Assembly: GCA_003222275.1 (NCBI GenBank)
Contig: QHVJ01000150.1
Span: forward strand, 10,518-74,517
Reading direction: 5' to 3'
DNA: 64,000 bases
DNA from: Acidobacteriota bacterium
Lineage (GTDB): Bacteria > Acidobacteriota > Vicinamibacteria > Fen-336
Part shown: one piece after another, positions 5,434-64,000 of the stretch
How positions within the stretch are numbered: the stretch's first letter is position 1
How the letters are laid out: each line of letters opens with the position of its first letter
Made by a program: the position numbers and the translations under genes
The notes under the pieces: model-generated
What the model was told of the DNA's origin: nothing
What the model saw: only the letters and a program-made list of their open reading frames with translations
Database searches by the model: none

Positions 5434-7002
5434 ATGAGGATCGCCGCCATCGACATCGGCAGCAACTCCTTTCACATGGTCATCGTAGAGAGCCGCTCCG
5501 GCGGGTTCCACGTGATCGACCGCGAGAAGGAGATGGTCCGCCTCGGCGAGCGCACGCTTTCGCGGGGCCGGCTGTCCGCGGCCTCCATGCGGCGGGGACT
5601 CGACGCGCTGCGCGAGTACAAGCGGCTGGCGGACATGCACGGCGTCGACAAGCTCCTGGTCGTGGCCACCTCCGCCGTGCGCGAGGCCGCCAACGGCGAG
5701 GATTTTCTCGAGCGTGTGGGCGGGGAGATCGGCTTCTATCCGCAGGTCGTCTCGGGCGAGGAAGAGGCCCGGCTGATCTATCTGGCCGCGCTCCACAGCG
5801 TCAACCTCGAGGGGCGGCGTACCCTGGTGGTGGACATCGGCGGGGGCAGCGTGGAGCTGGCCATGGGGGTGGGCCCCCAGGTGGAGTGGGCCGTCTCCGA
5901 GAAGCTCGGCGTGCTGCGAATGACCGAGCGCTTCGTCCACAGCGACCCCCTGGCCGCCCGCGACGAGCGGCGCCTGGTCGGCTACGTGAGGCAGTTCATG
6001 GTGCCGCACGCCGCCCGGGCGCGGGACGACGGCTTCGACCTCGTGGTCGGGACCTCGGGGACAGCCTTGGCCCTGGGGGCCATGGCCACTGCAGCGGGAA
6101 TACTACCCGAATCGCTCCACCACCTGACGGTGCCGGCGGCCGCTCTTCACGCCCTGCGCCGGCGCCTCGTCGGGACCACGCTCAAGGGGCGCCGGCGGCT
6201 GCCCCTCATGGACGAGCGGCGCACCGACATCATCGTGGCCGGCGCCGTCGTGCTGGACGAGATACTCGACGCTCTCGAGGCGAAGGAGATCGTCCTCTGC
6301 GAGTGGGCGCTGCGCGAGGGGTTGCTGCTCGACTACTTGACGGGCCACAAGCGCGCGGTCGCGCGCGCCGAGGCGTACCCCGACGTTCGCCGCCGCAGCG
6401 TCGTGGCCCTGGCCGAGCGCTGCCATTTCCACGAGGCGCACGCGCGGCAGGTGGCCGCCCTCGCCCTGGGCCTGTTCGACGCGACGGCGTCGCGGCACGG
6501 TCTGCAGGCACCGGAGCGCTCGCTGCTCGAGTACGCCGCGCTCCTTCACGACGTCGGCCGGCACATCTCCTATCCCGACCGGCACCGGCACACCGAGTAC
6601 CTCGTCCGCAACGGCGGGCTGCGCGGCTTCGATCCCCGCGAAGTCGAGATGATGGCGCTCGTGGGGCGCTATCACCGGCGCGGCGTCCCGCGGAAGAAGA
6701 ACCTGGCCTTCGCCGCGCTGGCCCGTCCCGACCGCGAAGCCGTGCGCATGATGGCGGGGCTCCTGCGGCTGGCCGACGCGCTCGATCGCAGCCATCGCGG
6801 CGTCGTCAAGGCGGTGGCCGTCTCCGAGACGTCACGGGGCCTGCGCTTGCGCTGCGAGGCGGAGGGCGACGCCGGCCTGGAGCAGTGGGCGTCGGGACGG
6901 CGGGTCGATCTGCTGGAGCGCGCGCTCGACCGGGCGATCCAGGTCGAATTCGCGCCCGTGCCCGCGGCCACCGCGGTGCGCGCGCGAGCGGCGGGCGCCT
7001 GA
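5434..7002 (+). CDS. ppx: Exopolyphosphatase / guanosine pentaphosphate phosphohydrolase (Ppx/GppA) with C-terminal HD domain
   Basis: Ppx/GppA N-terminus IAAIDIGSNSFHMVIVE...VATSAVREAANGEDF. HD region LLHDVGRHISYPDRHRHTEYL. Confidence 0.85.
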   Translation: MRIAAIDIGSNSFHMVIVESRSGGFHVIDREKEMVRLGERTLSRGRLSAASMRRGLDALREYKRLADMHGVDKLLVVATSAVREAANGEDFLERVGGEIGFYPQVVSGEEEARLIYLAALHSVNLEGRRTLVVDIGGGSVELAMGVGPQVEWAVSEKLGVLRMTERFVHSDPLAARDERRLVGYVRQFMVPHAARARDDGFDLVVGTSGTALALGAMATAAGILPESLHHLTVPAAALHALRRRLVGTTLKGRRRLPLMDERRTDIIVAGAVVLDEILDALEAKEIVLCEWALREGLLLDYLTGHKRAVARAEAYPDVRRRSVVALAERCHFHEAHARQVAALALGLFDATASRHGLQAPERSLLEYAALLHDVGRHISYPDRHRHTEYLVRNGGLRGFDPREVEMMALVGRYHRRGVPRKKNLAFAALARPDREAVRMMAGLLRLADALDRSHRGVVKAVAVSETSRGLRLRCEAEGDAGLEQWASGRRVDLLERALDRAIQVEFAPVPAATAVRARAAGA

Positions 7003-8612
7003 TGCCCAGCCCCCGCCGGCGCAGCCTGACCCCCAAGACCGCCCCCCCCGTGCCGGTCCCGGCGGAGGCCCCGCGGCCGGTGGCCGTGATCGACATGGGC
7101 GCCAGCGCCATCCGGCTCCTCGTCGCGGAGGCGGCTCCCGGCCAGCCCGTACGCATTCTCGAGGAGGCCTCCCGCGGCGTCCTGCTCGGCAAGGACACCT
7201 TCACGCACGGACGGCTCGGCGCGGCCACGGTGGAAGCCACGCTCAAGGCCCTCGAGGGCTTCCGCCGGATCATGGACGGCTACGGCGTCGTGCGCTACCG
7301 GGCGGTGGCGACGAGCGCGGTGCGGGAGGCCCAGAACTCCGACGCGTTCCTGGACCGGGTGCGCCTTCGCACCGGCATCGACGTCGAGGTGATCGACGGC
7401 TCGGAGGAGAACCGCCTCACGTACATGGCGGTGCGCGAGACGCTGCGCGACCACCCCGCCCTCACCAGCGGCGACACCCTCCTCCTCGAGGTCGGCGGGG
7501 GGAGCGCCGACATCTCCTTCCTGCGGAAGGGGCAGCCGATCAACTCCGGGACGTATCCCCTCGGCTCGATCCGCATGCGGCAGAGCCTCGCCTCCTGGCA
7601 CGGCAGCCAGGAGCAGGGGATGCGCCTCCTGCGCCGGCACATCCACAACGTGGTCGACGACATCCGCCGCGAGATCCCGCTGCGCGAGGCGCAGCACGTC
7701 ATCGCCCTCGGCGGCGACGTCCGCTTCGCCGCGCAGCAGATGGTGGGGGATCGGGCGGACGGCGCCCCCGCCATCCTCGGGCGCGAGCCCTTCGTGGCCT
7801 TCTGCGACCAGGTCACCTCCTGGGACGTCGAGCAGCTCGTGGAGCAGTATCACCTGCCGCAGGCGGAGGCGGAGACGCTCGTGCCCGCGCTCGTCGCCTA
7901 CCGCGAGCTGCTGCAGGAGACGGCGGCGCAGGAGGTGATCGTCCCCGACGTGTCCCTTCGGGCCGGCCTCCTCCTCGACGTGGCGCAGGTGGACGCCGGC
8001 CAGGGGATCGAAGACTTCAGCCGGCAGGTGCTCTCGAGCGCGGTCGCGCTCGCCGAGAAGTACCGCTGGGACGCGCCGCACTCGAAGAAGGTCGCGCAGC
8101 TCGCGACCCGGATCTTCGACGAGCTGAAGGCGGAGCACGGCCTCGGCGATCGCGAGCGGCTGCTCCTGGAGGTGGCCGCGCTCCTGCACGACATCGGCAA
8201 CTACGTCAACCTCCGCGGCCACCACAAGCACACCTGGTACCTGCTCTCGGTGTCGGACATCTTCGGCCTTTCGGGTGACGACATGGCGCTGGTCGCGAAC
8301 GTGGCCCGCTATCACCGCCGCGCCCTGCCCCAGAAGTCGCACCTGCCCTACATGGCCCTCGACCGCGAGGCCCGCGTGGTGGTCAACAAGCTGTCGGCCA
8401 TCCTCCGCCTCGCCAACGCGCTCGACGCCGACCATCTCCAGAAGGTGAAGGACGTGCGGGTGCTGTCGGAAGAGGGGGACTGGGTCCTGGACGTGGATGG
8501 GGCGGGCGACCTCACCATGGAGCGGCTGGCTTCCCTCGCGCGCGGCGATTTCCTGACCGAGGTGTTCGGCCGGAAGCTCACCTTCCGGGAATCGAGGGCC
8601 CGCGCATCGTGA
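7002..8612 (+). CDS. ppx: Second Ppx/GppA-family exopolyphosphatase with HD domain (paralog)
   Basis: Start MPSPRRR at an ATGA overlap with the upstream ppx stop. VAVIDMGASAIRLLVAE...VATSAVREAQNSDAF and HD region LLHDIGNYVNLRGHHKHTWYL. The 5316..8612 ORF upstream of 7002 is antisense/frame noise over the first ppx. Confidence 0.8.
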   Translation: MPSPRRRSLTPKTAPPVPVPAEAPRPVAVIDMGASAIRLLVAEAAPGQPVRILEEASRGVLLGKDTFTHGRLGAATVEATLKALEGFRRIMDGYGVVRYRAVATSAVREAQNSDAFLDRVRLRTGIDVEVIDGSEENRLTYMAVRETLRDHPALTSGDTLLLEVGGGSADISFLRKGQPINSGTYPLGSIRMRQSLASWHGSQEQGMRLLRRHIHNVVDDIRREIPLREAQHVIALGGDVRFAAQQMVGDRADGAPAILGREPFVAFCDQVTSWDVEQLVEQYHLPQAEAETLVPALVAYRELLQETAAQEVIVPDVSLRAGLLLDVAQVDAGQGIEDFSRQVLSSAVALAEKYRWDAPHSKKVAQLATRIFDELKAEHGLGDRERLLLEVAALLHDIGNYVNLRGHHKHTWYLLSVSDIFGLSGDDMALVANVARYHRRALPQKSHLPYMALDREARVVVNKLSAILRLANALDADHLQKVKDVRVLSEEGDWVLDVDGAGDLTMERLASLARGDFLTEVFGRKLTFRESRARAS

Positions 8613-52942: not shown

Positions 52943-53371
52943 ATGGTCGACGTGTCCGCCAAGCCGGTCACGAGCCGCGAGGCGGTGGCGCGGTGCCGCA
53001 TCCGCATCGCTCCCGCCGCCCTGCGCCTGGCGCTCAGCGGGCGGCTCCCGAAAGGGGGCGTGGCCGAGGTGGCCCGCCTGGCCGGGATCCTGGCCGCCAA
53101 GCGCACGGCCGAAGCCATCCCCCTCTGTCACCCGTTGCCCCTCACCCTCGTCGACGTCGACGTGCGGCCCCGCCGGGACGGCTTCGAGATCGAGGCCCGC
53201 GTCCGCACGGAGGCCCGCACGGGCGCGGAGATGGAGGCGCTCCACGCGGTGGCCGTGGCCGCCCTCACCGTCTACGACATGGTCAAGGCCGCGGACAAGA
53301 CGATGACCATCACCGACATCAGGCTGGTGAAGAAAACCGGAGGCAAGAGTGGGGCTTACATCCGGCGATAG
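52943..53371 (+). CDS. moaC: Cyclic pyranopterin monophosphate synthase MoaC
   Basis: MVDVSAK...[15 protein letters not shown]...GAEMEAL...DMVKA. The in-frame upstream codons encode [11 protein letters not shown], matching the conserved MoaC N-terminus, but contain no ATG/GTG/TTG. The listed start is therefore a minimum. Confidence 0.8.
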
Positions 53372-54389
53372 GCGCGCGGGAAGGACGTGGCCGACGCTGC
53401 TCGGAGTCGTCGCCGCCGCGGCCGCGCTCGCGACAGGACGGGCGGACGCGCAACCCGCGAACGCCGCGCCCAATCCCTACCGCACGGTGGAGGGCTGGGC
53501 GAAGATGCCCGAGGGGCGGACGTGGGGCGCGACGAGCGCGGTCGACGTCGCCCGCGACGGCCGGTCCATCTGGGTCGCGGAGAGATGCGGCGCCAACACC
53601 TGTGCCGGCTCGACCCTGCCCGCGGTCCTGCTGTTCGACGAGTCGGGCCGGCTCCAGAAGAGCTTCGCCGCGGGGGTCTTCGTCTTTCCCCACGGCATCC
53701 ACGTCGATCGGGGCGGGAACGTCTGGGTGACCGACGCGCGGGGCCGCGACGGGAAGGGGCACCAGGTCTTCAAGTTCAGCGCGGACGGGAAGCTGCTGCT
53801 GACGCTGGGCAAGGCGGGCGTCACCGGCGAGGGTCCCGACGTCTTCAATCAGCCCTCCGACGTGGCGGTCGCCGCCAACGGCGACGTCTTCGTGGCCGAC
53901 GGCCACGACGAGAACTCCAACGCGCGCATCGTGAAGTTCACCAAGGACGGCAGGTTCATCAAGACATGGGGCAAGCGGGGGACGGCCGCGGGCGAGTTCG
54001 ACACGCCGCACGCGCTGGCCTTCGATTCACGCGGGCGGCTCTTCGTGGCCGACCGCGGCAACAACCGCATCCAGATCTTCGACCAGGAGGGTAAGTTCCT
54101 CGAAGAGTGGAAGCAGTTCAGCCGGCCGAGCGGGATCTACATCGACAAGCACGACGTGATCTACGTGGCCGACTCCGAGTCCAACCGCAAGACCAACCCG
54201 GGCGGGAAGCGAGGCATCCGCGTGGGCAGCGCGAAGGACGGCAAGGTCACGGCGTTCATCCCCGACCCGGAGCCGGACCCGGAGAAGGTGGTCACGAGCG
54301 GGTCGGAGGGCGTCGCGGCCGACGCCCAGGGCAACGTCTACGGCGCGGAGGTCGGCCCGCGTGCCCTCAAGAGATACGTGAAGAAGTAG
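53349..54389 (+). CDS. Secreted NHL-repeat (six-bladed beta-propeller) protein
   Basis: GTG start with RBS GGAGG; signal peptide. Repeated NHL-like blades ([40 protein letters not shown]). Confidence 0.7.
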
Positions 54390-54483: not shown

Positions 54484-55683
54484 TCACTTGACGCCCCAGG
54501 GCGTCCCCTGGTCCGGCTTCACCGGCCCGAGACCCTTGTAGACGAACTTCTGCAGGCGCTTCCCTTCGTAGGTCTCGGTGGTGTAGATGTTCCCCTTCGA
54601 ATCGGTGGCGATGCTGTGAACGCCGAAGAACTGGCCCGGCTGGCGCCCGCCGTCGCCGAACGCCGTGAGGATCTTCAGCGTGTCGCGGTCGAGGATGTAG
54701 ACCTTCTCGTTCTTGCCGTCGGCGAGGTAGAGGTACTTCTGCCGGGGATCCTTCGAGAAGGCGATGTCCCAGACCGAGCCGTCGCCCAGCGTCTTCTTCG
54801 CGATGAACGTCTCCTTCACGAAGCTCCCGTCCTTCTGGAACACCTGGATGCGGTCGTTCGGGCGGTCGCAGACGTACAGGAGGCCGTCGTTCGCCAGCTC
54901 CGCGCAGTGGACCGGCGTGCGGAACTGCTGAGCGGGCAGGGCCGCGGGGTCGTAGTTCCCCAGGTCCGTGTCGTCGGGCTTGTGGCCGTAGGCGCCCCAG
55001 TAGCGCTTGAACTTCCCGGTGTCGGCGTCGATCACCACCACCCGCTTGTTGCCGTAGCCGTCGGCGATGTACGCCTCGTTGGCCTTCGGATCGACGAAGA
55101 TCTTCGCGACCTGGCCGAAGTTCTCCATGTCGTTGCTGCCCTTGCCCTGGCCCTGGTGCCCGAACTGCATCAGGAACTTCCCGTCGCGCGTGAACTTCAC
55201 GACGTGGGCATCGCCCTTGGCGTTGCCGCCGATCCAGACGTTGCCCTTGTCGTCGGCGGTGATGCCGTGGTTCGAGGCGGGCCATTCGTAGCCCGGCCCG
55301 GGGCCGCCCCAGTGCCCGACCAGGTTCCCGGCCGGATCGAACTCCAGGATGGGCGGCGCGGGCAGGCAGCAGTCCTCCGCGCTCGGCGGGGTCGAGGCGA
55401 GGCCGATCTCCGTCCGCGCGTTGAGCGTGCCCGCGCCTCGATGGACGATGAACACGTGGTCACGCGCGTCCACCGAGACGCCCACGGCGGAGCCCAGGAC
55501 CCAGTGGTTCGGCAGGGGCTTCGGCCACAGCGGGTCCACTTCGAACCGCGGCGCCTGGACCGCGCCCGCCGCTTGCGCGGCCGCCTTCGCCGCGAGCGCC
55601 GCCTGGCCGGCGCCGAGGGCGGCGAGCACGGCGAGGAACGACGCTCCCACGAGGACGTTGTGCGTCTGCCTCGATCGTGCCAT
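54484..55683 (-). CDS. Secreted NHL-repeat beta-propeller protein (second, convergent)
   Basis: Signal peptide; NHL blades (VFIVHRG, VWIGGNAKGD, AYIADGYGN, LYVCDRPNDRIQVF, LYLADGKNEKVYILD, IYTTETYEG). Confidence 0.7.
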   Translation of the reverse strand: MARSRQTHNVLVGASFLAVLAALGAGQAALAAKAAAQAAGAVQAPRFEVDPLWPKPLPNHWVLGSAVGVSVDARDHVFIVHRGAGTLNARTEIGLASTPPSAEDCCLPAPPILEFDPAGNLVGHWGGPGPGYEWPASNHGITADDKGNVWIGGNAKGDAHVVKFTRDGKFLMQFGHQGQGKGSNDMENFGQVAKIFVDPKANEAYIADGYGNKRVVVIDADTGKFKRYWGAYGHKPDDTDLGNYDPAALPAQQFRTPVHCAELANDGLLYVCDRPNDRIQVFQKDGSFVKETFIAKKTLGDGSVWDIAFSKDPRQKYLYLADGKNEKVYILDRDTLKILTAFGDGGRQPGQFFGVHSIATDSKGNIYTTETYEGKRLQKFVYKGLGPVKPDQGTPWGVK

Positions 55684-55736: not shown

Positions 55737-57059
55737 ATGAGAACGCGTCTGCTTCTCGCGCTGCCGGCCGCGCTGGCCTTCGGGCTCGCGCCGCCGGCGT
55801 CCCCCCACGACATCGCGCCGGACGTGGCCGTGCAGGCGTTCCTCAAGCCGGAGGGCCAGCGCCTGCGCCTGCTTGTCCGCACGCCGCTCGCCGCCCTGCG
55901 GGACGTGGTCTACCCGACGCGCGGGCCGGTGTACCTGGACATCGCGCGAGCCGATCCGTCGCTGCGGGACGCCGCCAACCTCTGGATCGCCGGCGCGGTC
56001 GAGCTCTACGAGGAGGACGAGCGCCTGCCCTCCCCGCGCATCGTCACCGTGCGCGTGTCGCTGCCCTCCGACCGCAGCTTCGGAAGCTACGAGGAGGCGC
56101 TGGAGCACGTCACGGGCCCGCCCCTGCCCGACGACACCGAGATCTACTGGAGCCAGGCGATGCTCGACGTGCTGTTCGAGTATCCGATCCGTTCCGAGGG
56201 CTCCCGCTTCTCGATCCATCCCGCGCTCGGCCGTCTCGGCCTGCGCGTGGTCACCGCGCTCCGGTTCCTGCCCCCCGGCGGCGCGGTGCGCGCGTTCGAG
56301 CTCGAGGGCGATCCGGGCCTCGTCCGTCTCGATCCGCGCTGGCACCAGGCCGCGCTCCGGTTCGTCGGGCTGGGCTTCCGGCACATCCTCGACGGCACCG
56401 ACCATCTCCTCTTCCTGCTGTGCCTGGTGATCCCGTTCCGGCGGCTGCGCGCGCTCGTGCTCGTCGTCACCTCGTTCACCGCCGCGCACTCGATCACGCT
56501 GATCGCGTCGGCGTTCGGTCTCGCGCCGGACGCGCTCTGGTTCCCGCCCCTCGTCGAGACCCTGATCGCGGCCTCCATCGTCTACATGGCGCTCGAGAAC
56601 ATCGTCGCCCCCCAGCTGCGCCGCCGATGGATCATCACGTTCGCATTCGGCCTCGTCCACGGGTTCGGCTTCTCGTTCGCCCTCCGGCAGACGCTGCAGT
56701 TCGCCGGATCGCACCTGCTGACGTCGCTGCTGTCCTTCAACGTCGGGGTCGAGCTCGGGCAGCTCCTGGTCCTGCTGGTGCTGGTTCCGGCCCTCGATCT
56801 CCTCTTCCGCCGCGCAGTGCCCGAGCGGACGGGGACCATCGTGCTGTCCGCTCTCGTGGCCCACACGGCCTGGCACTGGATGATCGAGCGCTGGGACCGG
56901 CTCCGGCAGTTCCGCTTCCCGTGGCCGGCGCTGGACGCCGCGCTGCTGGCGAGCACGATGCGCGGGCTGATGGTGGTGGTCGTAGCGGCAGGGCTCGTCT
57001 GGCTGGTGCGCAGCGTGGTGCGGCCCGCCCGGCGGCGCGTCGCCAAGGAGGTCGAATGA
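55737..57059 (+). CDS. HupE/UreJ-family membrane protein (putative Ni/Co transporter) with N-terminal periplasmic domain
   Basis: Start MRTRLLLALPAALAFGLA (signal peptide). HupE/UreJ_2 signature HILDGTDHLLFLLCLV and second half FGLVHGFGFSF. Confidence 0.7.
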   Translation: MRTRLLLALPAALAFGLAPPASPHDIAPDVAVQAFLKPEGQRLRLLVRTPLAALRDVVYPTRGPVYLDIARADPSLRDAANLWIAGAVELYEEDERLPSPRIVTVRVSLPSDRSFGSYEEALEHVTGPPLPDDTEIYWSQAMLDVLFEYPIRSEGSRFSIHPALGRLGLRVVTALRFLPPGGAVRAFELEGDPGLVRLDPRWHQAALRFVGLGFRHILDGTDHLLFLLCLVIPFRRLRALVLVVTSFTAAHSITLIASAFGLAPDALWFPPLVETLIAASIVYMALENIVAPQLRRRWIITFAFGLVHGFGFSFALRQTLQFAGSHLLTSLLSFNVGVELGQLLVLLVLVPALDLLFRRAVPERTGTIVLSALVAHTAWHWMIERWDRLRQFRFPWPALDAALLASTMRGLMVVVVAAGLVWLVRSVVRPARRRVAKEVE

Positions 57060-58438
57060 CGGATCCGACGCGGCGGTCTTTCCTGCAGGCCATGGCGGGC
57101 GTAGGCTTCTGGGCCATGACCGACAAGCCGAGACCGGCGGGGGCCCAGGCCGCACCGGCATGGGATCCGTCGCAGCCGCTGCCCGCGGACCTCCCCGTGC
57201 CCGTCGACGACGGCGCATGCAAGCATCTGCCGGGCCTGGCGGTGCCCGCGATCAAGCTCCGGTCCACCAAGGATCGCTGGGTGGACCTCGCGGCGGTTCG
57301 TGCCCCGCGCGTCGTCGTGTACTGCTATCCGCGAACGGGGGTCCCGGGCCAGCCCCTGCTTCCCGGGTGGGACGCGATCCCGGGCGCGCGCGGCTGCACG
57401 CCGGAGACCTGCGGCTTCCGCGACCATCACAAGGACCTGCAGCAGCTCGGAGCCGAGGTGTTCGGCTTCAGCACGCAGACGACCGAGTACCAGAAGGAGA
57501 TGGCCGAGCGGCTCCACCTGCCGTTCGAGGTGCTGAGCGACGCCGACCTCGCCTTCGTGCACGCGCTCCGGCTGCCGACGTTCGACATCGAGGGCATGAC
57601 CCTCGTGAAGCGGCTCACGCTCGTGCTGTCACGGCAGCACATCGAGAAGGTCTTCTACCCGGTGTTTCCGCCCGACAAGCATGCAGCCGAGGTGATCGAG
57701 TGGCTGCGCGCGCATCCGGCCGAGGCGAAGGGCGCGGAGAAGGTCATCGCCCTGGTCGCGTTCCCGGACCTCACGCTGCTCGATCTCGTCGGGCCCCTGC
57801 AGGTCCTGAAGGCGCTGCCGGCGCCCTATCGGACCGTGGTCGTGGGGGAGCGCAAGGAGCCGATGTCGACCGACACCGGCCTCACGCTCACGCCCGAGCG
57901 GACCTTCGCCGAGGTGCCGCAGCCGTTCGCGATCGTCGTGCCCGGCGGGCCGGGATCGGTGGCGGCGATGGCCAATCCCGCGCTGCAGTCGTATCTGCGC
58001 TCGGCCGCGCCGAGCGCCGACGTCGTCGGCTCCGTGTGCACGGGCGCGCTCGTCCTGGGCGCCGCGGGGCTGCTCGAGGGCCGCCGGGCGACCACGCACT
58101 GGGCCTACTCCGGCGAGCTGGAGAAGCTCGGCGCGCGCTACGTGCGGGAGCGGTGGGTGGAGGACGGCAAGCTCGTGACGGCGGGCGGGGTCTCGGCGGG
58201 CATCGACATGGCCCTCGCCCTCGCCGCCCGCCTCAGCGATCCCGCCACCGCGCAGCGCATCCAGCTCGGGATCGAGTACGATCCGCACCCGCCGCTCGGC
58301 CCCATCGACTGGAGCCACGTGGGCGACGCGGAGCGCGAGCGGCAGCGCCAGGGCGGCACGGGCCGGCGGCTGAAGGACGCGCGCCAACTTCTCGTCGGCC
58401 GGCCCGACCTGCTCCGCCGCCTGGGGATCGAACCCTGA
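57056..58438 (+). CDS. Tat-exported fusion protein: BCP/PrxQ-like peroxiredoxin domain + DJ-1/PfpI (class I glutamine amidotransferase-like) domain
   Basis: ATGA overlap with the HupE gene. Twin-arginine motif TRRSFLQA. Prx motif GCTPETCGFRD. DJ-1/PfpI nucleophile elbow VCTGALVLGAAGLL with HWAYS. Confidence 0.7.
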   Translation: MTDPTRRSFLQAMAGVGFWAMTDKPRPAGAQAAPAWDPSQPLPADLPVPVDDGACKHLPGLAVPAIKLRSTKDRWVDLAAVRAPRVVVYCYPRTGVPGQPLLPGWDAIPGARGCTPETCGFRDHHKDLQQLGAEVFGFSTQTTEYQKEMAERLHLPFEVLSDADLAFVHALRLPTFDIEGMTLVKRLTLVLSRQHIEKVFYPVFPPDKHAAEVIEWLRAHPAEAKGAEKVIALVAFPDLTLLDLVGPLQVLKALPAPYRTVVVGERKEPMSTDTGLTLTPERTFAEVPQPFAIVVPGGPGSVAAMANPALQSYLRSAAPSADVVGSVCTGALVLGAAGLLEGRRATTHWAYSGELEKLGARYVRERWVEDGKLVTAGGVSAGIDMALALAARLSDPATAQRIQLGIEYDPHPPLGPIDWSHVGDAERERQRQGGTGRRLKDARQLLVGRPDLLRRLGIEP

Positions 58439-58456
58439 TTTGATTCCTGTGTTAAT

Positions 58457-58486
58457 GTGATACTGTGAAGAATGTCACAGTATCAC
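58457..58486 (+). promoter_or_regulatory. 12-6-12 perfect inverted repeat GTGATACTGTGA-agaatg-TCACAGTATCAC spanning the vapB start codon (likely VapB/VapBC autoregulatory operator)
   Basis: Perfect dyad in an AT-richer patch; the GTG start of vapB lies inside the left arm. Confidence 0.45.
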
Positions 58487-58707
58487 TACCGGAGCTGGTC
58501 TACCGCCGCGCCCGCATCAAGGCCGCCGAGCGCGACACGTCGGTAACTGCCCTCGTCCGCGAGTTCCTGATGAAGCTGGGGGAGGAGGAGTCGGACTTCG
58601 AGCGGCGCCAGCGGCTTCAGGACGAAGTGCTCGCCTCGGTGCGAGGCTTCAGCGCCGGCGATCGCCGGCCGCGGAGCGACGTGCACGGGCGCCGTGCGCT
58701 TCGTTGA
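58465..58707 (+). CDS. vapB: Type II antitoxin (VapB-like, ribbon-helix-helix/AbrB-like N-terminus)
   Basis: 80 aa; N-terminal DNA-binding-like region MKNVTVSLPELVYRRARIKAAE...ALVREFL. Overlaps the downstream PIN toxin by 14 nt. Confidence 0.6.
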   Translation: MKNVTVSLPELVYRRARIKAAERDTSVTALVREFLMKLGEEESDFERRQRLQDEVLASVRGFSAGDRRPRSDVHGRRALR

Positions 58708-59125
58708 CACGAACGTCCTGCTCTACGCGGTCAGCACGGCCGCCGGCGAGCGCGCCAAGGCGGATCTGGCCCGGGCGGTGTTGGAGTCCTCCGACCTCGG
58801 CCTGTCCGTCCAGGTCTTGCAGGAGTTCTATGTCCAGGCGACGCGCCCGACCAAACCTGACCGGCTCAGTCATGAGCAGGCCGCCATGCTCGTCGAGAGC
58901 TTCTTGAGGTATCCGGCGCAGGAGATCACGGCGGCCCTGATGCGCGCCGCCCTGGAAACGACGCGCCGTTTTCGTATCGCGTACTGGGACGCCGCCATCG
59001 TAGAAGCAGCCCGGGCGCTCGGTTGCCGGACGCTCCTTTCGGAAGACCTGGCGCACGGCACCGATTACGAAGGCGTCACCGTCGAGAACCCGTTCCGCAC
59101 GGGCCGGACGCGGCGCCGGACCTGA
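58694..59125 (+). CDS. vapC: PIN-domain ribonuclease toxin VapC
   Basis: MRFVDTNVLLYA N-terminus with conserved Asp residues; 143 aa; GTG start. Confidence 0.8.
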   Translation: MRFVDTNVLLYAVSTAAGERAKADLARAVLESSDLGLSVQVLQEFYVQATRPTKPDRLSHEQAAMLVESFLRYPAQEITAALMRAALETTRRFRIAYWDAAIVEAARALGCRTLLSEDLAHGTDYEGVTVENPFRTGRTRRRT

Positions 59126-59219
59126 CGCTCCCGCTCACGGTGCCCGAGGCCGTGGCCGCCGGCACGCGTAGCACGCAGGTGAACACTTCGGTCGCGCGCT
59201 TCATCCGCGAAGAGCCCGA

Positions 59220-60368
59220 TCAGGCCGCTCTCGCGGTGACCCCGAGGATCCGGCCGAACACGTCCGTGGCGCGCTTCATCTCGTCGAGCGTGCCGATCGA
59301 GACCCGCACGTGGCTCTTCTCCAGAGGCGGGAAGTCCCGCGCCACGAGCACGCCCTGCTCGCGGCAGGTGTCGCGGAAGGCCTTCGCCGGGCGCTTGATG
59401 TCGACGAACACGAAGTTGGTCTGCGAGTCCGTGGACGCGAAGCCCGCCTTGGAGAACCAGTCGATCGTGAACCGCCGGGCCTCGGTGTTGCGCGCGCTCT
59501 CGCGCTGGAGCCGGGCCTGGTCCTGGATGGACGCGGTGGCGGCGACGATGCCGGCCACGTTCAGGGCCATCGACCCCTCCCAGTCGAGCCGCTTGATCGT
59601 CTCGGGGTGCCCGATCGCGTAGCCGACGCGCATGCCCGCCATCCCGTGCGCCTTGGAGAACGTGCGCGCCACCACCACCCGCGGGTCCTTGACCGCGCGC
59701 GCCGCCTGCGTGCGGTGGGACGGATCGGTGACGTAGTCGTGGTACGCCTCGTCGATCAGGACGAGGGCGTCGGGCGCCGCGGAGTGCACGCGCTCGATGA
59801 ACGCGTCCACCGCGTCGCCGGTGAGGAGGGTGGCGGTGGGGTTGTTGGGGTTGTTGAGGAACACCAGGCCCGCGCCCTTCGCGGCCTCGGCCATCGCGTC
59901 CAGGTCGAGCTTGAGCGAGCGGTCGAGCGGGATCGCGCGCACCGGCGTGCCGATGAGGTCGGCGTAGCCCGCGCACTCCTCGTAGGTGAGCTGGCCCGCG
60001 ACCAGCGGCTTCGCGGGCGAGGTGAACGTCTGCACCGCCACCCGCAGCACCTGGGTCGAGCCGCAGCCGCTCGTCACGTTCTCGGGGCTCACGCCGAACT
60101 TCTCGGCGATGGCCTGGTGGAGATGCGCCACGTGCTCGAAGGGATAGCGGCCGGCCGGACCGCCTTCGGCGAGGGCGCGGCGCACGGAGTCGAGGACGGC
60201 CTCGCCCGGGCCCAGCGGGTTCTCGTTGTTGTGGAGGAGCAGCGGCCGGGGCGGGCGCGCCGCCCCCGACCCCTGGAAGAGCCCGGCCCAGGCCTCGCGG
60301 CGGGCCGCGAGCAGGCTGGCTCCGCCGATGCCCACCGTCTTCACGAACGCGCGGCGCGTGAACGACAT
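59220..60368 (-). CDS. Class I/II PLP-dependent aminotransferase (HisC-like) with N-terminal Tat signal peptide
   Basis: Start MSFTRRAFVKTVGIGGASLLAA after RBS AGGAGG. LNNPNNPT...SKAHGMAGMRVGY (PLP lysine) block. The 59220..62738 ORF is a read-through artefact merging this gene with antisense sequence. Confidence 0.8.
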   Translation of the reverse strand: MSFTRRAFVKTVGIGGASLLAARREAWAGLFQGSGAARPPRPLLLHNNENPLGPGEAVLDSVRRALAEGGPAGRYPFEHVAHLHQAIAEKFGVSPENVTSGCGSTQVLRVAVQTFTSPAKPLVAGQLTYEECAGYADLIGTPVRAIPLDRSLKLDLDAMAEAAKGAGLVFLNNPNNPTATLLTGDAVDAFIERVHSAAPDALVLIDEAYHDYVTDPSHRTQAARAVKDPRVVVARTFSKAHGMAGMRVGYAIGHPETIKRLDWEGSMALNVAGIVAATASIQDQARLQRESARNTEARRFTIDWFSKAGFASTDSQTNFVFVDIKRPAKAFRDTCREQGVLVARDFPPLEKSHVRVSIGTLDEMKRATDVFGRILGVTARAA

Positions 60369-60397
60369 GTCTGCCTCCTTGCGCGGCATGCCCGCCC

Positions 60398-61594
60398 TCA
60401 CCGGGGCCTCCGGGGTTCGTTCACCGACCCGGCCGGGGCCGGCCGGCCCCCGCCGAGCACCTCGGCGATGACCACCCCCGCCCGCTGCATCTCGTCGATC
60501 GTGCCGATGGAGACGCGCGCGTGGGTCTTCTGGAGCGGCGGGAACTCGCGTCCGACCAGGATGCCGCGCCGCGCGCAGTCTTCCTTGAACGCCTTGGCGG
60601 GGCGGCCGATGTCGACGAACACGAAGTTGGCCTGCGAGTCCATGACCCGGAAGCCCATGTCCTTGAAGATGCGCGTCGTGAACGCCCGCGCCTCGGTGTT
60701 GCGCGCGCGCTCGGCCTCGATGTGGGCGGGATCGTCCAGCGCCGCGATCGCCGCGGCGACGGCGAGCGAGTTCTGGTTGAACGTGATCCCCCAGCGGTTG
60801 AAGGCGTCCATCGTGTGCTTCTGGCCGATCGCGTAGCCCACGCGCATCCCGGCCATGCCATAGGCCTTGGAGAGCGTGCGCGCGACGATGACGTTCGGGT
60901 GCTCGAGGGCGAGCGGCACCGCGGTGGCGTAGCCGGGATCCGTCACGTAGTCGTGATAGGCCTCGTCGACGAGGATGGCGGTCTCCGGCGATTCCTGGCC
61001 GACGCGCGCGATGAAGTCCGCCACCGCGCGGGCCGGGTGGAGCGTGCTCGTGGGGTTGTTCGGGTTGCACAGGAACACCAGCCCCGCCCAGCGGGCCGCC
61101 TGCGCCATCGCGTCGAGGTCGAGCCGGCCGTCCTTGTCGACCGGGACCCGCCGCACGCCGATGCCGAGCTGGTCGGCCATCTTCTCGGGCATCTCGAAGG
61201 TCGGCGCCGCCGTGACCAGCGGCCGCGACGACGACGTGTAGAGACGCACCGCGATGCGCAGCAGCTCCCAGGAGCCCGAGCCCATCGACACGTTCTCCGG
61301 CTTCACGGAGTTGCGGCGGGCGATCGCCTCGCGTAGGTCGCCCATCGAGGGCCGCGCGTTGGTGGGGTAGCGTCCCGCGTCGACGAAGGCGCGCGTCAGC
61401 GCCTCCATCGCCGCCCGGCCCGGGCCGAGCGGGTTCTCGTTGCTGTCGAGCAGGATCTTGGCTTCGGAGCGCGGGGTCGGCGCGGCGCCTCCGGCCGTGA
61501 ACGCCTCGCGGCCGCGGGCGGCGACGATGGCCGGGGAGTAGGCTGCGGTCCCGGGCGAGATGGCGCCCAGGAACGAGCGTCGGGAGACCGGCAT
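60398..61594 (-). CDS. Class I/II PLP-dependent aminotransferase (HisC-like) with N-terminal Tat signal peptide, paralog
   Basis: Start MPVSRRSFLGA after RBS GAGGAGG. LCNPNNPT...SKAYGMAGMRVGY. About 55-60% identical to the downstream paralog. Confidence 0.8.
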   Translation of the reverse strand: MPVSRRSFLGAISPGTAAYSPAIVAARGREAFTAGGAAPTPRSEAKILLDSNENPLGPGRAAMEALTRAFVDAGRYPTNARPSMGDLREAIARRNSVKPENVSMGSGSWELLRIAVRLYTSSSRPLVTAAPTFEMPEKMADQLGIGVRRVPVDKDGRLDLDAMAQAARWAGLVFLCNPNNPTSTLHPARAVADFIARVGQESPETAILVDEAYHDYVTDPGYATAVPLALEHPNVIVARTLSKAYGMAGMRVGYAIGQKHTMDAFNRWGITFNQNSLAVAAAIAALDDPAHIEAERARNTEARAFTTRIFKDMGFRVMDSQANFVFVDIGRPAKAFKEDCARRGILVGREFPPLQKTHARVSIGTIDEMQRAGVVIAEVLGGGRPAPAGSVNEPRRPR

Positions 61595-61624
61595 GGTAGT
61601 CCTCCTCTAAGCGACGGATCGGGG

Positions 61625-62923
61625 CTAGGTGGGTCGATTGTACCGCACGCGCCCCAACGCCAGATACAGGAAAAACCCGGCGACGAGCGCCGCCACGCCC
61701 GTGGCGGCCTGGGAACGTTCGAGGCCGGTCAGCAGCCAGAGGGACAGGCCCGCGGCCGCCGCCGGGACGAGGAGCCCGCCCGGCACGCGGAAGCGCCGCT
61801 CCGCCGCGGGCATCTTGCGCCGGAGGACGGGCACCGCGAGACACGTCGCCGCGCTGAACACGAGGCGGGCGACCGCGCTCACGGCCGCGAGGCGGGCGAA
61901 GTCTCCGAGGAGCGCCGCTGCCCATGCCAGCAGGGTGAACACGACGACGGCGACGTGCGGCGTGCGGTGGCGCTCGTGGACGCGCGCCAGCGCCGCCGGG
62001 AGCTGCCCGCCCTCGGCCAGGGCGTAGAGGATCCGGGGGCCCACCAGCGCCAGGGCGCTCGAGCTGCCCGCCGTGGAGACGACGGCCCCCAGCGCGATCG
62101 CGAGGGCGCCCGCGGGCCCGAGGAAGCTCCGCGCCGCCGAGGCGAGCGGGGTGGGATCGCTCGCGAGGCCGGGGAGCGTGCCGAGCGCCACGATCTGGAC
62201 GAGGACGTAGAGCACGGCCGTCAGCCCGATCGCCGCCAGCAGCGCGACGGGCAGGTGGCGCTTCGGGTCCTTCGACTCGTCGCCGGGGACCGAAGCGTTC
62301 TCGAATCCGCCGAAGGCAAAGATCAGCAGCAGGCTCGCCTGCCGCAGCCGGCTCGAGTCGGGAAGGGCGAGGAGCACGTAGCGGTTCGGGTCGGCGTAGA
62401 CCAAACCCACCGAGACGAAGAGGAGCAGCGGGACCAGCTTCGCGACCGTCAGCACGTTCACCGTCCAGCCGCCGTAGCGCACGCCGACGACGTTCACCGC
62501 CGCAAGAGCGGCGAGCAGGGCCGTGATCGCGAGCGCCCGGCCGGCTCCGCCCGCCGCGGCGGGCCAGAGGTAGCCGAGGTAGGCGGCGAACGCGTTGCCG
62601 ATCGCGGCGGCGGCCGCGAGCCGGGAGAGGAAGAACGCCCAGCCCACCTGGAACGCGACGAACGGCCCGAAGGCCTTGCGGGCGTACAGGTACGGGCCGC
62701 CGGTGCGGTCGAACAGGCTGCCCGCCTCGGCGAAGCACGCCACGACGAGCGCGGCCACGAGGGCCGCCACCAGATAGGCGACGGGGCTCGCGGGCCCGAG
62801 CAGTCCCGCCACCGTCGCCGGGAGCACGAAGATGCCGGAACCGATGACGCCGTTGACGGCGATGGCGGTCAGGCCCGGCAAACCCACGACCCGGAGAAGG
62901 CGCGGGCGCGGCGGGCTCGCCAT
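61625..62923 (-). CDS. APC-superfamily amino acid permease
   Basis: 12-TM pattern; GSGIF motif (VNGVIGSGIFVLP); APC family. Confidence 0.8.
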   Translation of the reverse strand: MASPPRPRLLRVVGLPGLTAIAVNGVIGSGIFVLPATVAGLLGPASPVAYLVAALVAALVVACFAEAGSLFDRTGGPYLYARKAFGPFVAFQVGWAFFLSRLAAAAAIGNAFAAYLGYLWPAAAGGAGRALAITALLAALAAVNVVGVRYGGWTVNVLTVAKLVPLLLFVSVGLVYADPNRYVLLALPDSSRLRQASLLLIFAFGGFENASVPGDESKDPKRHLPVALLAAIGLTAVLYVLVQIVALGTLPGLASDPTPLASAARSFLGPAGALAIALGAVVSTAGSSSALALVGPRILYALAEGGQLPAALARVHERHRTPHVAVVVFTLLAWAAALLGDFARLAAVSAVARLVFSAATCLAVPVLRRKMPAAERRFRVPGGLLVPAAAAGLSLWLLTGLERSQAATGVAALVAGFFLYLALGRVRYNRPT

Positions 62924-62927
62924 CGGG

Positions 62928-63938
62928 CTAGACGTTGTTGAGGATCGAGAGCGCGGTGCCGCTGAAGATCCGCTGCTTCTCCTCGTCGGGGATCGCGAGC
63001 GCCTCGATCGAGGAGACGGCGCGGTCGATCGAGCCGAGCAGGTGCGGGTAGTCGCTGCCCATGACCATGTGGCTCGTCCCCACCAGATCGCGCGCCATGC
63101 TCAAGGTGTACGGGCTGAACGTCACCGTGTCGTAGTAGAGCTTCTTCAGGTACGTGCTGGGCAGGGCGTCGATCTTCGCGCGGCACTCGGCGAAGTCGCG
63201 GAAGCCGTTGTCGAGCCGTTCCATCAGGTACGGGATCGCGCCGCCGAGGTGGCCGACGATCCAGCGGATGTCGGGCCGATCGCGCAGCATGCCGTCGAAG
63301 CACATCCGGGCCACGGCCAGCGTCGTGTCGAAGGGGAAGCCCACGAGGGGGCCCAGCACGTACTCGCCGAACGGCTCCGCGTTCGCGGGCAGCATGGGAT
63401 GGAGCAGGATGCACAGTTTCATCCGGTTCGCCTCCTCGAAAAAGGGGCGATAGGCGGGCGCGGTCAGCGGCCGCCCGCGGATGTTGCTCAGGAGGATCAC
63501 GCCGTTCAGCTTGAGCTCGCCGATGGCGCGGTGCAGCTCGGCCAGGGCCGCGTCGGGCGCGTCCATCGGGATCGACGCGAAGGCCTTGAAGCGGCGCGGA
63601 TGCGTCGCGACGAGCTCGGCGTACGCGTCGTTGATCTGCCGCGCGACCGCGGGCTGGCGCCGCTCGTCCACGAAGAAAACGTTGGGCGTCGAGAGCGAGA
63701 CGACCTCGACGTCGATGCCCACGCGGTCCATGTCCTCGAGCCGCTGCGCCGGGTCGCTCATCGGCGGCGTGATGCCGAAGAAACGCGAGCCGCGGTACTT
63801 GATGATCGTGCGCCCGGCGGGGTCGCGGTCGAACGAGAAATCGCCGCCGCCCTCGCGGATGAGGTCGAAGTACGGGGGCGGGTAGTAATGGGTGTGCAGG
63901 TCGAGCTTCACGGCCGTTGAGATTGCCATAGAAGTCAC
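62928..63938 (-). CDS. Amidohydrolase-2 (ACMSD-like metal-dependent hydrolase) family protein
   Basis: LDLHTHY metal-binding start; HLGG and DYPH motifs. The start is the GTG at 63938 or the ATG at 63929. Confidence 0.75.
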   Translation of the reverse strand: MTSMAISTAVKLDLHTHYYPPPYFDLIREGGGDFSFDRDPAGRTIIKYRGSRFFGITPPMSDPAQRLEDMDRVGIDVEVVSLSTPNVFFVDERRQPAVARQINDAYAELVATHPRRFKAFASIPMDAPDAALAELHRAIGELKLNGVILLSNIRGRPLTAPAYRPFFEEANRMKLCILLHPMLPANAEPFGEYVLGPLVGFPFDTTLAVARMCFDGMLRDRPDIRWIVGHLGGAIPYLMERLDNGFRDFAECRAKIDALPSTYLKKLYYDTVTFSPYTLSMARDLVGTSHMVMGSDYPHLLGSIDRAVSSIEALAIPDEEKQRIFSGTALSILNNV

Positions 63939-64000
63939 CGCGATTCAGGGAAACCCTTCCCACGATTTCAGGGTCCACCTGATTGTCTCTCGACCTCCGC

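Follow-up and report, generated by a model that had tools for sequence, protein, structure and literature searches.

Positions 59220-63938 of the stretch of DNA analyzed here (64,000 nucleotides of an Acidobacteriota bacterium, GenBank assembly GCA_003222275.1, contig QHVJ01000150.1, positions 10,518 to 74,517; hereafter the window, with a G+C content of ~70%) encode an amidohydrolase, an amino-acid permease, and two pyridoxal phosphate (PLP)-dependent transaminases, AT2 and AT1, both of which begin with a twin-arginine motif. All four genes lie on the minus strand and are transcribed in the order amidohydrolase > permease > AT2 > AT1, with intergenic gaps of 4, 30, and 29 nt, an operon-like arrangement. 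The initial annotation of this region had the permease and amidohydrolase follow the transaminases, which is true only in plus-strand coordinates; in the direction of transcription they precede them. The first gene (62928-63938, minus strand) encodes a 336-residue ACMSD-like enzyme of the Amidohydro_2 family (PF04909, E = 1.3e-35, 124.1 bits against a cutoff of 26.4), and the second (61625-62923, minus strand) a 432-residue permease of the APC superfamily (PF13520, E = 4.9e-49, 167.8 bits; PF00324, 116.5 bits). They are followed by the genes for the two HisC-like transaminases, the 398-residue AT2 upstream (60398-61594, minus strand; PF00155, E = 4.5e-47, 161.4 bits) and the 382-residue AT1 downstream (59220-60368, minus strand; PF00155, E = 2.7e-44, 152.3 bits; cutoff 19.7 for both). 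A scan of 58400-64000 found no sigma-70-like promoter, and the terminator-like matches in this interval all fall within coding sequence and do not help to delimit the transcript.

Direct reading of the sequence confirms the gene coordinates, the N-termini, and the strong ribosome-binding sites that had been reported for the transaminases: AAGGAGG (60374-60380, minus strand) ends 5 nt before the AT1 ATG at 60368, and GGAGG (61601-61605, minus strand) ends 6 nt before the AT2 ATG. For AT1 the choice of start codon is ambiguous, with in-frame candidates at ATG 60368, ATG 60389, and GTG 60401, the last of which overlaps the AT2 stop codon. The proximal Met is absent from some AT1 homologs, and AAGGAGG would encode Lys-Glu-Ala if an upstream start were used. 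All three candidates keep the twin-arginine motif at the N-terminus.

AT1 and AT2 were first annotated as paralogous HisC-like PLP transaminases, and this assignment holds. The proteins are 50% identical to one another, share the PF00155 domain and the HisC fold, and have every catalytic residue intact. The AlphaFold model of AT1 (predicted template modeling score, pTM, of 0.80) is ordered from the NENP motif on, and its best fold matches are all HisC-type chains, with TM values of ~0.77-0.84. Escherichia coli HisC residues Y55, N157, D184, Y187, T211, S213, K214, R222, and R335 are all kept in both proteins; the conserved PLP residues are Y75, N176, D206, Y209, S238, K239, R247, and R355 in AT1 and Y76, N180, D210, Y213, S242, K243, R251, and R360 in AT2, and conservation of the HisC PLP residues is 90% or higher in each ortholog group. 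At the position of E. coli HisC Asp85, AT1 has Thr and AT2 has Trp. Apart from this replacement, the comparison with HisC revealed no specificity residue that would name a substrate. Near the active-site entrance, the AT1 group conserves T105, Q106, R109, and E131, and the AT2 group an RYPTNARP insert.

The top NCBIfam model for both transaminases is NF006580 (PRK09105), with 272.9 bits for AT1 and 286.2 bits for AT2 (cutoff 444). NF051461 (PtaA) is second-best and matches over the full length (248 and 259 bits, cutoff 500; E = 1e-73 to 5e-77), and the hisC model TIGR01141 scores 224.9 and 256.5 bits (cutoff 276.55). In the source databases the homologs are annotated as 'histidinol-phosphate aminotransferase'. 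The PRK09105 and PtaA profiles begin to align at residue 2-3 of AT1 and AT2 and thus cover the leader, which indicates that the leader is part of those families. PtaA is a characterized, Tat (twin-arginine translocation)-exported periplasmic transaminase that crosses the membrane folded and with PLP bound (reviewed in PMC6206403), and in Pseudomonas aeruginosa, PA2531 (signal MPALSRRSFVTLTALASSSILLSPRAFA) has been validated experimentally as a substrate of Tat (PMC6085387). The review also notes PtaA homologs in species that make no pyoverdine and suggests other periplasmic biosynthetic roles for them (PMC6206403). Tat export of a HisC-like transaminase is therefore already known and is rare only insofar as few such enzymes have been studied. 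The initial annotation had considered export uncommon for the family, a view at odds with the leader-containing PRK09105 and PtaA profiles and with PtaA and PA2531 as known Tat substrates.

The two leaders are unequal. AT1 begins MSFTRRAFVKT and AT2 MPVSRRSFLGA, so that the Tat consensus S/T-R-R-x-F-L-K is represented by T-R-R-A-F-V-K in AT1 and by S-R-R-S-F-L-G in AT2. The AT1 signal peptide (MSFTRRAFVKTVGIGGASLLAARREAWA, 60285-60368, minus strand) consists of the TRRAFVK motif, a core of 12 uncharged residues (TVGIGGASLLAA; best 12-residue Kyte-Doolittle mean 1.58), a basic c-region, and an AWA site; read by eye, its c-region RREAWA|G fits A-x-A. The AT2 leader (MPVSRRSFLGAISPGTAAYSPAIVAA, 61517-61594, minus strand) has the twin-arginine motif, a weak core rich in Pro, Ser, and Gly, and then a conserved RGRE motif. 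Its core is uncharged over 20 residues after SRRSFLG and borderline in hydrophobicity (best 12-residue mean 1.07), and its c-region, also read by eye, has Phe at -3 in RGREAFTA|G, with IVAA|RG as an alternative. The initial annotation ascribed a Tat signal to both proteins. This stands for AT1, which reaches the cutoff of the Tat-signal hidden Markov model TIGR01409 (17.9 against 16.7 bits), but is too simple for AT2, which scores 9.8 and belongs to a group of proteins that mostly lack the hydrophobic core. The Pfam TAT_signal model matches neither leader at E ≤ 10.

A profile-free exhaustive search of 1.84 billion cluster representatives (clusters at 50% identity) returned 961 proteins at E ≤ 1e-30. 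Among the best 150 of these representatives, nearly every full-length protein carries a twin-arginine leader; the canonical cytoplasmic HisC proteins P0148 and P0264, which are among the 150, have none. The AT1 leader is kept in all 120 of its closest homologs except fragments (at least 70% identity; soil metagenomes, labeled Vicinamibacteria). Orthologs lacking the N-terminal extension were looked for, and the extension is kept, leaving the proposal of export uncontradicted.

The pair was then mapped in related loci. A one-genome-per-species scan gave 80 loci, all in metagenome-assembled genomes of Acidobacteriota/Vicinamibacteria at 49-82% identity, and exact-protein look-ups added nine metagenome loci; with the window, these 89 make 90. 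Genes were located by tblastn and with a codon-usage gene caller followed by clustering. The two transaminase genes form a same-strand tandem in 87 of the 90 loci (window counted), with a median gap of 29 nt, and two of the three remaining loci are cut by a contig end. Among 72 clean pairs, the upstream gene is nearer to window AT2 in 64 and the downstream gene nearer to AT1 in 71. Average-linkage clustering separates the proteins into one group of 70 upstream and 1 downstream members and another of 1 upstream and 71 downstream members, and no protein in a clean pair has its own partner as nearest relative. AT2 and AT1 thus belong, as judged from their sequences, to two separate orthologous groups in fixed order, and the duplication that produced them is old. 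Two loci (L062, 6823-12246; L066, 6823-11690) contain two AT2-AT1 pairs in a row, that is, four transaminase genes, each pair with the same leader asymmetry.

The difference between the leaders extends to the orthologs, whose N-termini were chosen by anchoring on the NENP motif and a nearby start codon. The twin-arginine motif is present in 87/87 AT1-type and 69/70 AT2-type orthologs, as SRRxF in the latter, and R5 and R6 are invariant across the AT2 leader alignment; such conservation rules out chance occurrence of the motif in an Arg-rich genome of 70% G+C. The uncharged run that follows has a median length of 16 residues in the AT1 type and 10 in the AT2 type, with median best 12-residue Kyte-Doolittle means of 1.43 and 0.88, respectively. 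Simple thresholds on run and hydrophobicity are both passed by 78 of 87 AT1-type but only 4 of 69 AT2-type leaders, and TIGR01409 matches 55/74 and 1/62 at E ≤ 0.01. Many AT2-type leaders have Asp, Glu, Lys, or Arg at the position of the hydrophobic core, for example MLRSRRDFFDVLKGGRTGSGVAEWLAARGHEE. By these predictive measures, AT1-type leaders are canonical Tat signals, whereas those of the AT2 type mostly lack the hydrophobic core.

Directly after the leader core, both paralog groups share the motif (I/L)-x-A-R-G-(R/H)-E (window 60285-60300 and 61505-61520). It could be a c-region or Sec-avoidance element, or the site before which the signal is cut. It could also start the N-terminal arm of the mature protein, being aligned by MAFFT to A10-R11-E12 of E. 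coli HisC; residues 1-47 of the AlphaFold monomer have a predicted local distance difference test score (pLDDT) below 50 and speak neither for nor against a mature arm. In some AT2-type proteins (L052, L060, L063, and L077, with AT2-type genes upstream of position 8001) a long low-complexity insert rich in Gly, Gln, and Arg, such as QGGAGQGAGRAGGQGGRGGGRG, lies between the RGxE and NENP motifs.

The proposed link of the transaminases to a permease and an ACMSD-like amidohydrolase recurs in relatives. The best Protein Data Bank match of the window amidohydrolase is human ACMSD (4IGN, E = 6.6e-41, full length), whose HxH, His, His, and Asp ligands align with DLHTH, LLHP, GHLGG, and SDYPH. Arg47 of the human enzyme, which we take to bind substrate, aligns with a Phe, with an Arg two residues earlier; 4IGN itself has Ala at this position and is presumably a mutant chain. 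No NCBIfam family matches the window amidohydrolase. For the permease, TIGR00909 scores 254 bits against a cutoff of 556.8, and all specific NCBIfam transporter models stay under cutoff. The 'aromatic catabolic module' of the initial annotation is still a guess, the amidohydrolase keeping the ACMSD metal ligands but fitting no curated family. The window enzyme has no signal peptide; its translation could also begin at an ATG at 63929, and a hidden leader is excluded by an in-frame TGA three codons upstream of the start.

An amidohydrolase is found near the pair in 23 of the 90 loci and takes two forms. In eight loci (L001-L004, L010, L013, L019, and L056) an ortholog 79-81% identical to the window protein follows AT1; it has a Tat leader wherever the N-terminus is readable (MDRRGFLQTVGAVGAASAAL), and in none of the eight is a permease adjacent. 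The L001 protein, for instance, is 79% identical to the window amidohydrolase and carries the leader MDRRGFLQTVGAVGAASAAL. In the other 15 loci the enzyme is leaderless, starting directly at the metal-binding HxH motif, and in 13 of these it adjoins a permease. Two gene orders occur with the leaderless form, AMID>PERM>AT>AT in the window clade and AT>AT>PERM>AMID in a clade at 51-57% identity, and between the two orders the permeases share only ~30% identity. Within the window clade, amidohydrolase and permease are separated only in L008, by an ORF (open reading frame) of 536 residues with no Pfam match (5765-7375). The linked amidohydrolase thus appears, to judge from its predicted N-termini, to have changed compartment between relatives. 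This pattern of leader and permease suggests that the transaminase and amidohydrolase steps share an intermediate, which would have to pass through the membrane wherever the amidohydrolase is a cytoplasmic enzyme, the predicted case in the window.

Taken together, we consider it somewhat probable that the conserved AT2-AT1 gene pair encodes PtaA-like, HisC-fold transaminases that act as one unit outside the cytoplasm, coupled to the amidohydrolase and possibly as a heterodimer. Extracytoplasmic transamination, as proposed initially, is the likely reading of a signal on AT1 that is predicted to be canonical and is conserved. AT1 would fold and bind PLP in the cytoplasm and then cross the inner membrane through Tat on its own signal, as its leader and validated relatives lead us to infer. 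Enzymes of the HisC-type fold work as dimers in which both subunits contribute residues to each active site, and the equivalent of HisC Tyr55 is conserved in both AT1 and AT2. AT2, with its catalytic residues intact, would most likely travel with AT1 as the second subunit of an obligate dimer. An AT1:AT2 heterodimer carried by the AT1 signal is the best single reading because the genes are inseparable and the leaders unequal. Tat is known to export heterodimers by a hitchhiker mechanism (bioRxiv 10.1101/2023.11.02.564894). Once in the periplasm, AT1 and AT2 would interconvert an amino compound and its keto form, and this step would be metabolically coupled to the ACMSD-like, metal-dependent amidohydrolase or decarboxylase. 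In some relatives the amidohydrolase is itself predicted to be exported by Tat; here it is leaderless, and the APC permease encoded between the amidohydrolase and AT genes would carry the intermediate across the membrane. Actual export, heterodimer formation, the direction of flux, and the substrate are the inferred parts of this proposal. Among the pathways considered, no evidence was found for kynurenine or other aromatic routes, for sugar oxidation through a neighboring pyrroloquinoline quinone (PQQ) dehydrogenase, or for an amination of keto acids that would serve their uptake.

A more far-reaching version of this scheme is possible, though we hold it only tentatively. The heterodimer would be obligate and depend on the single complete signal of AT1; the coreless twin-arginine leader of AT2 would serve as a 'half-signal' in its own right, perhaps by making a second contact with the TatBC receptor or by binding a proofreading chaperone; the amidohydrolase would have switched between the periplasm and a cytoplasm-plus-permease arrangement; and periplasmic amino-group metabolism of this kind would be widespread.

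Several observations weigh against the main proposal. None of the PRK09105, PtaA, and hisC scores reaches its curated cutoff, so that family membership is by resemblance only. The amidohydrolase is not an obligate partner, with only 23 of 90 loci having one nearby and the pair in many of the others adjoining NHL propellers, HupE, and a PQQ dehydrogenase with cytochrome c, and the correlation between its leader and the permease reflects ~3 clades rather than 23 independent events. The AT2 leader of the window clade has a 20-residue stretch free of charges, and AT2 could be exported on its own, making a heterodimer unnecessary. A simple hitchhiker model would not lead one to expect such strong conservation of the two arginines in AT2, which points to an additional function, for example as a site for a chaperone or for a second contact with the receptor. 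Finally, no Tat translocase gene was recognized among the predicted genes of the 64-kb window.

In line with the initial annotation, AT1 and AT2 could be two independent periplasmic transaminases, homodimers that each leave the cytoplasm on their own Tat signal and differ in specificity or catalyze consecutive steps. Both proteins indeed have the S/T-R-R-x-F motif and all catalytic residues, the window AT2 leader has its 20 uncharged residues after the arginines, the characterized relative PtaA works as a single gene product, and the group-specific residues near the active-site entrance (T105/Q106/R109/E131 vs RYPTNARP) would suit two distinct enzymes. Yet AT2 falls short of TIGR01409 (9.8 vs 16.7), as do 61 of 62 AT2-type leaders at E ≤ 0.01, most of them charged where the core is expected, and the near-absolute co-occurrence in fixed order (87/90 loci) exceeds what independent enzymes would need; we regard this alternative as improbable, if deserving of serious weight. 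The missing core could instead mean that the system is split across the membrane, with AT1 in the periplasm and AT2, its arginines vestigial, in the cytoplasm, where it would work with the leaderless amidohydrolase on compounds imported by the permease. The window has both of these latter components, but a vestigial motif should decay, and S-R-R-x-F is retained in 69 of 70 AT2-type proteins with R5 and R6 invariant. Moreover, an AT2-type gene with the same kind of leader persists at loci whose amidohydrolase has a Tat leader and no neighboring permease, and a split system is therefore unlikely.

Two further explanations start from the families that the transaminases resemble. The full-length match to the PtaA model, second-best at E = 1e-73 to 5e-77, and the PtaA homologs and other biosynthetic roles discussed for non-pyoverdine species (PMC6206403) would be consistent with periplasmic tailoring of a siderophore or some other exported natural product by the pair, as opposed to a role in catabolism. 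The PtaA scores of 248 and 259, however, are about half of the equivalog cutoff of 500, no gene of the size of a nonribosomal peptide synthetase (NRPS) is present in the 64-kb window (the largest predicted product has 833 residues), the host lineage is Acidobacteriota/Vicinamibacteria, and the recurrent neighbors are the permease, the amidohydrolase, NHL propellers, HupE, and a PQQ dehydrogenase, not biosynthetic genes. We consider metabolite tailoring quite improbable. That AT1 and AT2 are ordinary cytoplasmic histidinol-phosphate aminotransferases of histidine biosynthesis, with Arg-Arg arising by chance in an Arg-rich, high-GC genome, is scarcely credible, even though the fold and PLP residues are those of HisC and the databases label the homologs accordingly. 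TIGR01141 remains below its cutoff (224.9 and 256.5 vs 276.55), Asp85 aligns with Thr or Trp, no histidine-biosynthesis genes are adjacent, and hundreds of relatives retain both the complete motif and the hydrophobic core, whereas the canonical cytoplasmic P0148 and P0264 from the same search are leaderless.

The neighborhood of the transaminase pair is also recurrent. Upstream of the transaminase region in plus-strand coordinates, the window encodes two NHL beta-propeller proteins with signal peptides (53349-54389, plus strand; 54484-55683, minus strand), a 440-residue HupE_UreJ_2 membrane protein (55737-57059, plus strand), and a 460-residue fusion of Redoxin/AhpC-TSA and DJ-1/PfpI domains with a Tat-like leader (MTDPTRRSFLQAMAGVGFWAM; 57056-58438, plus strand), at whose position related loci have a lone Redoxin of ~225 residues. 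Across the 90 loci, two NHL propellers neighbor the pair in 36, a HupE-like protein in 18, and a PQQ dehydrogenase with cytochrome c in 26; this neighborhood may be plain synteny or may represent a different partner process. Directly after AT1, on the opposite strand, lies a VapBC-like pair in which a small antitoxin-like ORF with a weak DUF6364 match overlaps a PIN-domain toxin gene (58465-59125, plus strand); the close relatives L005-L009 have a 124-residue secreted Cupin_2 protein there instead. In two more distant relatives (L001, 6562-14658; L003, 4130-14569), almost all genes surrounding the pair encode proteins with an export signal. The neighbors with such signals are an FAD-dependent oxidoreductase (DAO), an arginase-family protein, and Amidohydro_2, joined by an FAA-hydrolase-family protein in L001 and by FmdA/AmdA in L003. 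A class V aminotransferase (Aminotran_5) has an export signal in the L001 copy as called, and the L003 copy as called lacks the twin-arginine motif. From their predicted signals, these surroundings look like a whole periplasmic cluster for processing amino compounds.

To our knowledge, periplasmic PLP chemistry is rare, and PvdN and PtaA are its only characterized examples; they leave open the mode of export, recycling, and the role outside pyoverdine producers. PtaA-like enzymes are abundant in uncultured soil Acidobacteria as a fixed two-gene unit with unequal leaders, and no description of such a paired system was found in the literature on periplasmic or Tat-exported PLP or HisC-like aminotransferases. 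A fixed two-gene arrangement in which one Tat leader is full and the other only 'half', combined with an amidohydrolase that switches compartment, appears to be undescribed. If the proposal is true, the 'half-signal' heterodimer would be a new type of Tat substrate architecture, and the system would define a widespread periplasmic amino-group metabolism in soil Acidobacteriota. The natural contrast between loci with an exported amidohydrolase and those with a cytoplasmic amidohydrolase plus permease offers a handle on the pathway intermediate. If AT1 and AT2 are two ordinary, independently exported enzymes, the window merely adds a new member to the PtaA/PRK09105 group.

Among known systems, PtaA (of P. 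fluorescens, and PA2531 of P. aeruginosa) resembles the pair in that it, too, is a HisC-like PLP transaminase of class I/II whose N-terminus carries an S-R-R-x-F twin-arginine signal. PtaA, however, is a single gene acting on the Glu side chain of pyoverdine, whereas AT2 and AT1 come from an invariant pair of genes, differ in their leaders, and are linked to a permease and an ACMSD-like enzyme; the window offers no pyoverdine or NRPS context. NF006580 (PRK09105) is the best model and includes the leader, but both proteins score below its subfamily cutoff and the model has no functional assignment. The closest structure by sequence (E = 4.3e-44) and by fold (TM 0.77-0.84, ~30% identity) is that of a putative histidinol-phosphate aminotransferase from Pectobacterium atrosepticum (3LY1), an uncharacterized structural-genomics target that aligns only from AT1 residue 39 and is uninformative on the leader. 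HisC itself (TIGR01141; E. coli 1FG3/1GEW) has the same fold and the same PLP-binding residues, but it is ~25% identical, cytoplasmic, and leaderless, its Asp85 is not kept in AT1 or AT2, and there is no his operon context here. The window amidohydrolase shares its metal ligands with ACMSD and related Amidohydro_2 decarboxylases and hydratases (PF04909), from which it differs in that its orthologs in related genomes carry Tat leaders; we know of no description of such leaders in the ACMSD/Amidohydro_2 family, although the literature was not searched for one. The proposed mode of export resembles that of the Tat hitchhikers (hydrogenase small and large subunits, DmsAB, and formate dehydrogenase), in which two co-encoded subunits share one complete Tat signal. 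The known passengers lack a twin-arginine motif and the partners are unrelated redox subunits; AT1 and AT2, by contrast, are 50% identical paralogs that would form a putative heterodimer, and the presumed passenger, AT2, keeps its twin-arginine motif.

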